A stretch of 51,950 nucleotides of DNA from a virus (lineage: Duplodnaviria > Heunggongvirae > Uroviricota > Caudoviricetes): positions 1-51,950 of the IMG/VR virus record IMGVR_UViG_2909303794_000011; one strand, written 5' to 3'. The position numbers are program-made. This document shows, piece by piece, positions 3,001-9,000 of the stretch; the stretch's first letter is position 1; each line of letters opens with the position of its first letter.

Positions 3001-6000
3001 GGCAGTGTTCTGGATGCGGCAAAACCTGTATACGGAATCAATTACACATCAAACCCGGCGAAAAGCGCTCGTCCATATCTACTTAAACTCGGTTTGATTG
3101 GCAAATCAAACCGTCGTAATCGTAGACCAGCATCTGATGATGCTTGACATGCTCATTGAAGACCTTCAACAACGCTCTACCCATAAATGTTCAAAAATTC
3201 CGTTCGTTGATATCCTCAAAAATTCGGTACAGGCTATGCTGAACCGGTTTTCCTGAATCATTTCACCGTATGGTTAAATTTTAACCTTACAATACTTATT
3301 ATGTTTACAAATAATTGCAGTTTTAACAAAAGCTAACCACATAGTGATTTTATTATCTCAATATTTTTTTCAATGTTATCGGTGTCATACTCAAACAACT
3401 GGAAACTAAAATTATCATATTTTTGATATTGAATATTTTCCTTTCGTAACATTTTAACATTTCCATCAATATCAAATAACGTTGCAATCTGCTCCAAATC
3501 TGTCTTATTTTGAGACATACAGGAGAAGTAATTGCAAATATCATCCAGCAAAATCGGAGTCAATGCTTTATGCGTCATCCAGTCCTCAAATCTTAACTTT
3601 CTGGTGACGCCCTCTCCTAAATCTGACTGATACAAGAATGCAAGACGACAAGAGTTTTCTCCTTTGGGAATATCGACAATGTAAGCATGACCAAGCGCAC
3701 CATCATTAACACGTAATACAAAGCTCTTACATTCAGGCATACAGGACAGGCGCTCCTGAAGCTGCTCGAGCGATAGTGTCTGTTCATTTTCAAAGCAGTA
3801 ACTGAAGCCATCCTTGTCCAGAAATAGTTTCATAATGGCATTAGCGGTAACTCCGCAGGAGGGTTCCACAATGCCTTTCTCTCGCCCTATAATAACCTCA
3901 ACCTCCTCAATCGACATCCCCCAGTCTGTTGCCATCTGTTTGATGTTAGAGTCGATATTTTGCATTATTGCAGCAGGATTTTTCTGATGTATAGGTACTT
4001 CGTGGTCATCACTATTTAGCAGTACATTAGCTTTGAGATTCTGTGAGCACAGGGAAGCAAAATATCTTACATGTAAGGCTGAAGTGTGTTGCATGGGAGA
4101 TAATACAGCTTCAGTATTTACAGATATGGCCCCCGTCAGACAGGACGCGGACGTCGGGGGGGGAGGAAGGCTAATGTCTTTCATATCTCACTCATTCACT
4201 CTATGTTTACCTATAAATACAGGCGAGGAGCAAAAGGAACTTCTGGCATGGACATTATGTAATGTCTGAAATTTTTCTGGTGCCTATATGCCATTCGCCA
4301 GTCTCTCAGCGGCATTGTCCATTTCTGTGATCCGCCAAGAATTGCCAGCCACACAACTTTTTACCAACTCCATCCATGCAACAAATCTACTACGCTGGAT
4401 AAAATTACTAAATTTTACTTAATACCACACTAATAAGATCTTGCTTTCCGCCATGATAAGATTGCATTATTTGGCTTTCACTCCATGAACGGTCAGAAAC
4501 ATTATAAGATGATATATCTATTGGATTAAATTCATTCCTTACACGGTCATATAAAACATTTGTCTCTGTTGTATCGATAAAAAGAATTCCTTTTTGCTCC
4601 AGCCTGTCAAACATATCGTAAATAGCATGCTCAGCCTGTACTGGCAATGACGAAATATTAAAAAGCGACTCCCCGTTTATTTTATTCATTCTAATACCAA
4701 GAACATCATCATTATCGCCATATATTTTTTCTGCACTCCCGGCGCCATAATATTTGTTGAAGCAACGAACTTCGTTTGTCACCTCCTCATGGCTTTGAGA
4801 TGTAGTAAACATCTTCAGGACTTTTGTTGCATCCTCTGCATCTTCATACACTACAGCGTTCCCCCCCTTGCCAATAACATTACCCAGCACAGGCAACCTG
4901 TTATAATCCACACTAGGTAACTCTGGCAGTGCATAATCAACAGGAGGTAAATCAGGTCTGTTCGAATGAACACTTCCTCTTTCCATAGCCATATTCACTG
5001 GCGATGAATTCAACATAACCTCAATCTTTCTGCTAATCTCTCCCTTAGGCCATCCCAGCCTATGCAACAGATTAGTAAAACAACCACCATGACTTTCTCT
5101 TGTGACGCAAAACTTATTATCAGTGACCACAACACGATATGTTCTGTTGCCAACCTTTACTTGCGTCCCATTATCAGAGTGAACTGCAGCATCCCTTACA
5201 GAGGATAAAACACGATTATCAGGCGAAGTCAGGTTTCTGGTTAAAGAACTCCATGAACATCCCAAATTTATAGAAGAGGGCGATAACATACATTTCAACC
5301 TTCAAAATAGACCTATCCAAACATTCCTAACAAATATCCCCCGGACATTGCAACACAAAACCGGAGCCGGACTCCGGTTTTGTGAAGCTGTCGGGTTACT
5401 TCATCCCGCCAATATTTTCCCACGTCCCGTCAGCACGCAGAATTTGCAGCGGTCTTACCACGCACTGTATCTGCTTTTTATCCGCATCCAGTATCACCAC
5501 CTGCGTGATTACCCTGGCCTGCTCCGGGATAATACCATTCTCATCTGACTCCAGAATGTCTGCCGGCCCCAGTCGCAGTTGTGCTGTAAGCGACTGCCCG
5601 TGTTCACGGCCATCATGCTTTCCGCAACCACACAGACGCTGCATAAGTTTTTTTAGTATGTTCATGTCATTCTCCTGTTCTGCCTGTATCACTGCCCACT
5701 TCATCCAGCCCCTTAACATCCTGCCACGGCCCGTCACCAAATCTGACCTGCAAATGCTGAAACAGCCCCTGAACCTGTGTGGCATCTTTGGGGTCAAGAA
5801 AGGTCAGTCCGGTGATGAGCGCACCATCTGTACCCGGGAACCAGCCATTGCTGTTTGTCTCAATAATGCTCGCCGGCCCCAGACGAAAACGGATTTGTGT
5901 CTCCCCCGGGTCGCCCTTCGGTCCCTGAGGTCCGGTTGCCCCCACCGGGCCAGCCGCACCTGTTTCTCCTTTCGGTCCCTGTGGGCCTGCCGGGCCTGCC

Positions 6001-9000
6001 GCACCGGTATCTCCCTTTGGACCCTGTGGACCTGCATTTCCCGTCAGACCGGTCTCTCCCCGCTCTCCCCTGTCACCTTTCGGCCCCTGCGGGCCTGCCG
6101 GACCAGCATCACCTGCCGGTCCCCGTTCGCCGGTTGCCCCGACAGGGCCGGTGTCACCGCGCTCTCCCTTATCACCCTTCGGCCCCTGAGGACCCGCGGG
6201 CCCCTGTTCCCCCTTTGGCCCGGGAGGTCCCACCACGGTGGGGATTCGGTTTACGGCCTCTTCCGCCGCTATCCTGCTTTGTTCCGCTGACTGTGCGCTT
6301 TCTGCTGACTCCCGGGCTTTTTCTGTTGCGGTCGTTGCATCCCTGGCTGCATTACCGGCTGCACTTTCTGCCGTCTTTCTTGACAATTCAGCTTCTGCTG
6401 CATTTTGTGATGACTCACTGGCTTTTTGAGCGGCCGCAGAAGCCGAGGACGAGGACGCATCCTCTGACTGCTTTGCTGAGGCTGCACTTTCTGCCGCCTG
6501 CCGGGCTGACTCCGATGCCTCCCCTGCTGAAGTGTCAGCATTTGCAGCGCTCTCTTCTGCCTGACTGGCTGATATGCCGGCATTCCTCGCTGACGTCTCC
6601 GCCTCTCCGGCATTCTTCTTCGCCTCTTCAGCGTGACGCGCCACCTCTTCCACCATCAGTTCAAAACGGCGCAGTGCCTCCGGCCGGACGTCATCCTCCG
6701 ACATGGCACCGAGAAAATCATTCAGCGTACCGGGTCGGGAATCTTCATACACGGTGATGGTCCCGGCATGTGACGGCGGGAATCCTTCCACCAACAGAAT
6801 AACGCTGTACTGACCGTACTCAACGTCCATGCTGTAACGCCCGGCTTCATCCGGATTTTCTGAGGCCAGCGTGTTCACCACCACCGTGGTGCTGTTACGT
6901 TTTGCTTTCAGCTGGATTGTGCAGTTCTGTACCGGTTTTCCTGTGCCGTCTTTCAGTACACCTGAAATCTTTACTGCCATATTCCCCCCACAAAAAAGCC
7001 CACCTGAACCGGCGGGCTGTCATAACACTGTGTTACCTAGCTAATCAGAATTTATAACCGACACCCACGATGAAACCGTCAGTGCGCCAGTCACCACTGC
7101 CGGAGCCTTCATAAGCAATATCAATGGCCACGGATTCGGTCGGGTTAAACTGCACGCCAGCCCCCCACGCCAGAGACGTGTTGCTGTGGCGACCGTCATC
7201 ACTTCCGGTCAGCACATCGTGCGTTTTCCCCTTGTTGTCGGTCACCTGCAGATAATCCCCGGAGAAGGTCGAAACACGGCTGTAAGCCACCCCCGCCATC
7301 GCATACGCGCTGAACCATTCATTCACGCGCACAGACGGTCCCGCCATCACGCTGAACCAGCGGTTACGCACGGAATCCTCATGCCAGCGGGTATCGCTGT
7401 AATGCGTTTTTTGCTCATCTTCAGCGTTGGCATAACTGAATGACGTAATCAGCCCCAGCGTGTCCGTAAACTCATAACGGTATTTCACGTTAATCCCGTT
7501 CAGATTATCGCTGCCGGGAGCGTTCGTACGGGCATGAAGATACCCTGCGCTCAGTGTGGCCTGCTGCTCAGATGCCCATGCAGGCGCACCGGATACGGCC
7601 AGACAGATGGCTGCGGACAAAATGGCTGCATAAACTTTACGCATAATTACCTCTCGCTTTTCTGCAATAAAAAAGGCGCCATTTCTGGCGCCCGTATTGG
7701 GGTTATAAAATTCAGCTGATACTGATGCCTGCGGTGGCTTTCTTCATCACCACAACCAGCAAATCACTGATACTTGCTGTGGGATACCAGTCATTTACCA
7801 GCCATGCTGACACCGAAAACTCCAGCGTCATGTGGCCGCGACCAGCTGGCATATCAATAACACCACTGTAAATCAGCGTATTATCCAGCGCGGTACGGTT
7901 ATAAATTTCAGCACCGTTTTTCCGTACTATCAGGCGGCATGACGAATAAATATCGTTATTCTCCCGCTCATGTTTAGCGCCGCTGAATGCCACCGCCGGA
8001 ATAACAATTTGCCTGTCAAAAGGCTGATCGTCATAAATCCTGACGGTAATGGTCCCTGATGGCCACCGCTCCGGTGCCCGGGAGTCCCGCGGGAAAGCCT
8101 TACCCACTGTTTTGACAATATCACCTTCAATCTGGTTGGCTGACAGCTTCCCCTTAATCGTACAATTCTCATTAATCGTGACATTGTTGAGCGTCCCGGC
8201 GTTCGCATTCACACTGCCACTGATATCCGCATTTTTAGCGGTCAGCTTTCCGTCTGATGTCAGGGAAAATACCGGAGGACTGCCACCACTGGTAATGGTG
8301 GGGGCCGTCAGGCGCTTCAGGAACACGTCGTTCATGAATATCTGATTGCCCTGCGCCACAAACATCGGCGTTTCATTCCCGTTTGCCGGGTCAATAAATG
8401 CGATACGGTTAGCGGCAACCAGAAACTGACTCAGTTTGCCTTCCTCCGTGTCCTCCATGCTGAGGCCAATACCCGCGACATAATGTTTGCCGTCTTTGGT
8501 CTGCTCAATTTTGACGCCCCACATGGCATTCCACTTATCGTTGGCGTCCTTCCACTCTTTCGAAAACTGCTCCAGTCTGCTGGCGTTATCCTCCGTCAGG
8601 TCGACTTTTTCCAGCAACTCCTTGCCGAGATGAGATTCGGTTATCTTGCCTTTGAAAAAATCCAGGTAACCTTCCGCATCATCGCTCGCCCGACCGACAG
8701 CCTCCACGAATGCCGATTTGCCAACGGTGTTCACACTGCGGATATAAAAGTAATAATCATGGCCCGGTTTGATATTGATACTGGCGGCTATCCAGTACAG
8801 CCCCGTGCCAAGATAGCGGGCTGTGGTTTCAACCTGCCTGATATCGGTAATCCGCTTTTCCGAGAACCAGAACTCAAACTGTACCGTCGGATCATAAACC
8901 GCAAGATGCGGCGTGGCGGTTATCTGAAAATACCCCGGTGTCAGCTCAATCTGTGACGGCGCTGCCGGTGCGGCAATCCGGAACGATACCGACGCCGGAT

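Follow-up and report, generated by a model that had tools for sequence, protein, structure and literature searches.

In this study, we analysed the 51,950-nt DNA of a tailed virus (IMG/VR record IMGVR_UViG_2909303794_000011, positions 1 to 51,950; hereafter the window), which is a complete lambda-like Escherichia coli prophage. Two adjacent genes on its minus strand, one for a collagen-like side tail fibre of 437 amino acids (aa) and one an 89-aa open reading frame (ORF) directly downstream, both end in the PfC domain (Pfam family PF06820) (Table 1); the original prediction, made from the sequence without database searches, had placed this pair correctly. The 437-aa protein is almost certainly an EPclA-type fibre, and the 89-aa ORF very probably encodes an expressed protein. 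Taken as a whole, the locus is probably an EPclA fibre module joined by an expressed accessory subunit of the fibre tip.

Table 1. Features of the fibre locus and of the surrounding prophage (positions in the window)
Feature	Position	Strand	Basis or setting
EPclA-type collagen-like side tail fibre gene	5667..6980	(-)	ORF of 437 aa plus stop; Pfam domains; primers; DNA identity
PfN domain (residues 1-133), tail-attachment collar, common with lambda Stf	6582..6980	(-)	PF08400 phage_tail_N, 1e-68
PCoil (residues 134-250), 117-aa Ala/Ser/Glu-rich coiled-coil tract, alpha-helical	6231..6581	(-)	Composition and heptad Ala
Collagen-like shaft (residues 251-361), 37 uninterrupted Gly-X-Y triplets (111 aa)	5898..6230	(-)	PF01391
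Fibre PfC domain (residues 363-426), distal trimeric knob	5703..5894	(-)	PF06820 Phage_fiber_C, 3.5e-36
89-aa PfC-only ORF (phrog_576; homologue of Sp5 ORF68 and phi24B gp59)	5396..5665	(-)	PF06820, 1e-34
AGGAG Shine-Dalgarno element of the small ORF, 6 nt before the ATG, within the last codons of the fibre gene	5672..5676	(-)	Read from the sequence
A7 homopolymer, codons 4-7 of the small ORF	5648..5654	(-)	
Strong hairpin with U-rich tail after the small ORF	5354..5384	(-)	RNA fold -26.9 kcal/mol, z = -6.0
Terminator-like hairpin between lom and the fibre gene	6997..7018	(-)	
lom	7045-7644		Upstream of the fibre gene
lambda J homologue	7712-11107		Upstream of the fibre gene
nleH	4408-5298		Downstream of the fibre gene
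cif	3333-4184		Downstream of the fibre gene
cdtA	1388-2209	(-)	CDtoxinA, 1.8e-52
cdtB-like nuclease	570-1391	(-)	Exo_endo_phos
cI-like repressor	42036-42728		Prophage
Integrase	50727-51950		Prophage

The fibre has the composition that defines EPclA, namely PfN (PF08400), a heptad-type PCoil region some 116 aa long, one (Gly-X-Y)n tract without interruptions and, at the C-terminus, PF06820. The resemblance of its N-terminus to lambda Stf, noticed from the sequence, was borne out by a match of residues 1-93 to the collar domain of Ur-lambda Stf (PDB 9E7M/9MGH, 7e-52), and the run of about 110 residues of continuous Gly-X-Y triplets is also present. The Ala/Ser/Glu tract between the two indeed exists (Ala 37, Ser 23 and Glu 16 of 117 aa), but it is the published PCoil coiled coil, with almost pure Ala at two of the seven heptad registers, as expected for an Ala-rich coiled coil. 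Neither PF03406 (Pf2 repeats) nor any other Stf distal domain was found in the fibre by the Pfam search; the fibre has collagen and PfC instead. Exact matches to all five cloning primers of Ghosh et al. (2012; PMC3368898) are present in the gene, and the PfC construct of that work (residues 363-426) coincides with the Pfam match. At the DNA level, the fibre region is 95-98% identical to many Shiga toxin (Stx) and lambdoid phages.

EPclA was named by Ghosh et al. (2012, PMC3368898), an example being ECs2717 of prophage Sp14 in E. coli O157:H7 Sakai. In most O157:H7 prophages it comprises 437 aa, of which 116 belong to PCoil and 111 to the collagen domain. The fibre of the window has the identical length, the same PfN-PCoil-Col(111)-PfC order and PfC at 363-426; the difference is allelic only, the present copy belonging to a prophage with cif, nleH and cdt and not to an O157 Sp prophage. 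Recombinant EPclA was characterized by analytical ultracentrifugation, size-exclusion chromatography with multi-angle laser light scattering, circular dichroism (CD) and electron microscopy (EM) as a dumbbell-shaped trimer containing a genuine collagen triple helix, which has a melting temperature of 42 °C; rotary-shadowing EM of the 437-aa protein gave molecules of roughly 55-60 nm (PMC3368898). PfC and PCoil are each a trimerization module, and PfC trimerizes autonomously (PMC3368898). By analogy with this near-identical protein, the fibre of the window would have the same trimeric dumbbell form and collagen triple helix. The fibre architecture, the collagen-length variants and the PfC-only ORF are all already published, and the gene pair is a textbook-level annotation for this phage group, present in the Pfam, PHROG and PGAP annotations. 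PGAP names the two products "prophage tail fiber N-terminal domain-containing protein" and "phage tail fiber C-terminal domain-containing protein".

Collagen lengths had been tabulated as 27 to 322 aa over the EPcl types and 63-144 aa within EPclA (PMC3368898). Our survey of 160 related viral loci compared repeat number among related prophages, as the original prediction had proposed, and showed that the collagen tract does vary in length. Most fibres have 437 aa, in-frame tracts of 24, 45, 81, 90, 96, 108, 111 and 114 aa occur, and many fibre copies are frameshifted. The earlier idea that fibre length could vary was thus right, but not the trinucleotide slippage invoked for it. In the alignment, the shorter and longer tracts differ by deletion of whole blocks, and the deletion ends fall within repeated motifs, among them GPAGPQGPKG, GPQGPKGD and GPVGATG. 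The mechanism is recombination or slippage between dispersed 15-25-nt direct repeats; simple triplet slippage was rejected. A 45-nt direct repeat detected by TRF inside the collagen tract (5945-6035) is consistent with block deletions. IS3- and IS66-type transposases were also seen in or beside the PfC region of the fibre in three of the loci (L005, L015 and L078).

The small ORF begins one base after the fibre gene ends (TGA at 5669-5667, ATG at 5665-5663). The family phrog_576, which has 89 positions, matches it over 1-89 of 89 (E 7.5e-60), and its PF06820 match covers residues 28-89 with 119 bits against a curated cut-off of 25. The N-terminus, residues 1-27, is unique; a helix is predicted in it, and it contains the motif CGCGKH. 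A C-terminal motif common to the fibre and the small ORF had been proposed from inspection; in BLASTP the PfC part of the small ORF and the last 78 aa of the fibre share 23 of 62 residues (37%) with an E value of 5e-14, so the similarity is significant. The ORF occupies the gene slot held by tfa in lambda. It has no match to the Tfa/Caudo_TAP family; PF06820 is its sole Pfam match at E <= 0.01, and no NCBIfam match was obtained. A lipoprotein or secreted form was rejected on inspection, the N-terminus MNILKKLMQRLCGCG having no hydrophobic core. Phase variation at the A7 homopolymer was likewise rejected: of 126 related copies, 124 have A7 and two A6. With six A, the PfC body falls into the frame of the fibre, behind the fibre TGA. 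Sporadic mutation or sequencing error probably accounts for the A6 copies.

PfC forms a narrow family. Among 1.84 billion representative proteins, a profile search gave 82 matches, for the most part fragments of Escherichia-type prophage proteins, and revealed no informative distant family. The AlphaFold2 model of the small protein, which is of low confidence, is beta-rich with an N-terminal helix, in agreement with the published CD data, which show little helix in PfC (PMC3368898). Foldseek searches of the PDB with the models of the small protein and of the fibre PfC, both of low confidence, returned nothing below E 0.4. In an unrelated metagenomic protein of 565 aa (P0150), a domain with a weak match to the C-terminal half of PfC (…RRADGTW.EIP…) occurs four times in tandem, and a collagen-like tract comes after it; judging from this one sequence, a PfC-like fold may exist outside Escherichia prophages.

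The arrangement of the two genes has close precedents. In the short-tailed Stx2 phages Sp5 (ORF67/ORF68) and phi24B (gp61/gp59), an 89-aa PfC-only ORF also directly follows a collagen fibre that ends in PfC. Those fibres differ in being of the EPclB type, with 645-649 aa and two collagen tracts split by a short non-collagenous interruption, on podovirus tails, whereas here a shorter EPclA belongs to a siphovirus tail of the lambda type. Lambda Stf and Tfa share with the present pair the gene slot after J and lom, a homologous collar domain and a small gene behind the fibre gene. Lambda Stf, however, has a coiled coil and a gp37-like distal domain that binds OmpC (PMC12617516), so that its shaft and receptor-binding end are unrelated to those of the present fibre; and the downstream gene in lambda encodes the chaperone Tfa, whereas here it encodes a paralogue of the fibre's own knob. 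The T4 fibritin foldon, the C1q-like domain of Bacillus BclA and the globular domain of Streptococcus Scl are comparable to PfC as small globular trimers that, from one end, nucleate and stabilize a collagen-like or coiled-coil shaft (discussed in PMC3368898); no sequence relationship of PfC to the foldon or to the terminal domains of BclA or Scl was found.

For the small ORF, we calculated the ratio of non-synonymous to synonymous substitution rates (dN/dS) by the Nei-Gojobori method in loci picked by the fibre N-terminus, regardless of the small ORF. The pair, including its 1-nt spacing, is conserved, and the 89-aa ORF was intact in 40 of 43 scorable copies. Its dN/dS was 0.16 over the whole length, 0.073 in the PfC part and 0.31 in the N-terminal 27 residues, compared with 0.25 for PfC and 0.12 for PfN of the fibre. 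When the same DNA was read in the other two frames, the values rose to 1.3 and 2.3. In the proteome of purified phi24B virions, the peptides VITQVVILDADKK and ADGTWENIGGMK, which are identical to the small ORF, map solely to gp59 (bioRxiv 10.64898/2026.04.10.717836). The ORF follows PfC-bearing fibres of both the EPclA type (siphophages) and the EPclB type (podophages; locus L029 and Sp5 ORF68), and it is absent behind the one EPclD-type fibre examined (L225), which has an unrelated C-terminus. Selection, DNA divergence, the lack of swapped fibres, the virion peptides and this co-occurrence together indicate that the small ORF encodes an expressed and constrained protein with a functional tie to PfC fibres and is not a silent spare part.

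This result bears directly on a published proposal. Mondal et al. (2016, PMC5155283) found Sp5 ORF68 to be non-essential and suggested for it the role of "an intragenomic reservoir sequence" for fibre variation; on this account the downstream PfC copy is a silent cassette, occasionally swapped onto the fibre by recombination so that the distal domain changes. A natural chimera of the expected kind exists. In P0065 (L002 4-291), a 7-nt microhomology, CCGGCAG, marks an in-frame join between collagen triplet 13 (…GERGPA) and small-ORF residue 36 (DILESD…), and the resulting fibre would end in a small-type PfC; P0121 and L072 are further rare chimeras. However, P0065 ends at a contig edge inside the gene and occurs in two samples only. 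No full-length fibre with a small-type PfC is found in the 160 loci, and the 120 matches listed for the small protein in a search of 5.8 billion protein clusters all have 131 aa or fewer. The PfC domains of the two genes fall into two distinct sequence types; their DNA agrees at about 51% of positions, without any unbroken match above 11 nt. They are old paralogues and poor substrates for homologous exchange. A silent cassette also fails to account for the strong purifying selection in the ORF's own frame, for its own Shine-Dalgarno element and ATG, or for the detected peptides. We consequently regard the reservoir explanation as improbable. Of the two processes suggested in the original prediction, duplication holds, PF06820 being present in both genes, but ongoing modular exchange is not supported, given the DNA divergence, the two sequence types and the single contig-truncated chimera. 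Other chimeras, with J, Lom or CII fragments, resemble ordinary prophage decay.

A second possibility is a +1 ribosomal frameshift near the fibre stop, which would fuse the fibre to the small ORF and produce a minor fibre form with two PfC domains. Seen from the fibre, the small ORF indeed lies in the +1 frame, which has no stop in the 46 codons before the ATG, and an AGGAG lies just before the TGA. The search database of the phi24B authors includes such fusions, and they left the question open ("Spike or just gp59?"). Natural DNA frameshift mutants make fusions of this kind: in L072 (1686-3270) and L054 (2517-3270), a single-base frameshift in the fibre PfC shifts reading into the open upstream frame, which continues into the small ORF, and the fused product of L072 has 527 aa. 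Nevertheless, an equally open upstream frame arises in 21% of synonymous shuffles, as expected by chance, and a conserved frameshift extension was rejected on this ground. A prfB-type programmed +1 frameshift was rejected as well. The stop context is ACAGGAGAA-UGA-C, in which GAA offers no +1 re-pairing and hence no slippery P-site codon; the AGGAG is misplaced, abutting or overlapping the P-site codon, whereas the corresponding element of prfB is 3 nt upstream, and it stands at the optimal distance for ordinary initiation. Mondal et al. saw no frameshift signal at ORF68 (PMC5155283), and no junction peptide was reported for phi24B, although the gp59 peptides would fit a free protein and a fusion alike. 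Recoding is thus very improbable.

The small ORF might also have no function and persist through linkage, as the relic of an old duplication or of a fibre 3' end that had been displaced. The dispensability of ORF68 in Sp5, the narrowness of the PfC family with its many fragments, and the occurrence of some frameshifted small-ORF copies would all fit a relic. But a dN/dS of 0.07-0.16, as against more than 1 in the out-of-frame controls, does not fit one, nor does the 89-aa length kept in thousands of database members. The small ORF is disrupted no more often than the fibre gene, and it has been kept behind both the EPclA and the EPclB fibres. We therefore consider a relic quite improbable, slightly more so than a reservoir.

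Another conceivable function is that of an interference or decoy protein, in which free PfC would either join up with fibre chains and poison the fibre assembly of related superinfecting phages or block the fibre receptor. PfC trimerizes alone, the many related copies in an E. coli genome (up to 18) make cross-talk possible, and the gene lies in an accessory region beside lom and genes for type III secretion system effectors. Yet no promoter-like site was found in front of the small ORF, which is arranged for translational coupling to the fibre, and an arrangement of this kind would poison the phage's own fibres. Sequence inspection also showed no signal peptide that could export the protein to a receptor. 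Interference by a free decoy is accordingly about as improbable as a relic, if not a little more so.

A second distal coding copy adjoining a fibre gene is also a feature of the invertible fibre C-termini of Mu, P1 and P2 and of the template repeats of diversity-generating retroelements (DGRs). The present copy differs from all of these in its direct orientation, its own start codon and its DNA identity of about 51%, without an invertase, inverted repeats or a reverse transcriptase. For a DGR-like template of the fibre C-terminus, the geometry alone fits, since a copy of the fibre 3' end lies just downstream. The divergence of the copies is far from the identity of roughly 90% with adenine-specific differences that would be expected, and none of the neighbouring genes (J, lom, nleH, cif and cdtAB) matched a reverse-transcriptase family. 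These two observations refute a DGR, and we give it next to no credence.

We therefore return to the reading of the small ORF as an expressed accessory protein of the fibre tip. In the arrangement that we propose, the collar domain would dock the fibre on the tail tip as in Ur-lambda Stf, where the solved structure shows the domain that fixes the side fibre there (PDB 9E7M/9MGH; PMC12617516). The Ala-rich coiled coil and the 37-triplet collagen triple helix would make up the shaft, and the fibre PfC would form the distal trimeric knob and nucleate the triple helix. The 89-aa ORF is an old paralogue of this knob domain, provided with its own Shine-Dalgarno element and ATG and set between the hairpins that it shares with the fibre gene. 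The fibre gene and the small ORF look like one co-transcribed, translationally coupled unit, because hairpins flank the pair and the AGGAG lies inside the fibre's last codons; the downstream hairpin is likely to be the 3' end of this unit. The small protein may then be translated separately, form trimers, associate with the PfC knob or help to assemble it at the tip, and modulate receptor binding or fibre maturation under certain conditions, for example in host-dependent adsorption. Since PfC trimerizes autonomously, a small trimer or a partner of the knob is the most economical model. An accessory role at the fibre tip is plausible on these grounds, though a little short of probable; that the small protein is a true virion subunit which docks on, or co-trimerizes with, the fibre PfC knob is more doubtful.

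Several observations weigh against this reading. Recombinant EPclA makes trimers without the small protein (PMC3368898), and Sp5 with ORF68 deleted stays viable with plaque formation intact (PMC5155283). These findings exclude an obligatory chaperone function of the small protein as well as an essential structural one, and because EPclA folds without it and Sp5 survives without it, any role must be conditional. The gp59 peptides in the phi24B virion proteome had three spectra each, compared with about 150-180 for the top fibre peptides, and both contamination and substoichiometric presence fit these numbers. The dN/dS values were obtained for intact copies only, and the genes concerned are prophage genes that recombine and exist in multiple copies. 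Finally, the AlphaFold2 monomer models are poor, with a predicted local distance difference test (pLDDT) score of 62.6 for the 89-aa protein and 56.2 for the fibre PfC.

If the small protein is indeed a virion subunit of the knob, the distal tip of the collagen-like fibres would be a two-gene heteromeric receptor-binding device, and a paralogous tip subunit would be a new kind of fibre accessory in the commonest side fibre of pathogenic E. coli prophages. The small paralogue is under tighter sequence constraint than the knob of the fibre itself, and for this reason it might be the part in contact with a conserved receptor. As for the receptor of the PfC knob, the phi24B authors, citing work on lambda_2B8, argue against BamA (bioRxiv 10.64898/2026.04.10.717836). 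What our analysis adds to the published work is sequence and proteomic evidence for the companion ORF as a functional protein as opposed to a recombination reservoir.

Most sequenced E. coli genomes contain fibres of the EPcl kind, and many copies per genome are frequent. A 4.4-kb query from cif to lom had matches in 4911 of 5426 complete E. coli genomes, in up to 18 places per genome. When species-representative genomes were scanned with the whole fibre as query, a scan swamped by unrelated collagen-like genes, E. albertii was the only true relative to emerge. Three matches with 76% identity to fibre residues 1-153, in assemblies of Leeuwenhoekiella, Neobacillus and Kitasatospora (L084, L085 and L086), are most likely lambda-type DNA contamination. 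Such fibres ride on prophages that move Shiga toxin, Cif, NleH and cytolethal distending toxin (CDT) between strains; the binding target of the knob and the role of the small paralogue bear on the host range of toxin-converting phages.

Two further features of the prophage were observed away from the fibre genes. The CDT operon adjoins cif and nleH, so that three toxins acting on the host cell cycle or signalling lie in one accessory-gene cluster. Beside the integrase gene, a 1275-aa protein (46717-50544, minus strand) has an N-terminal SIR2_2 domain (9e-23) and, from its sequence, looks like the product of a DSR-type (defence-associated sirtuin) anti-phage gene.

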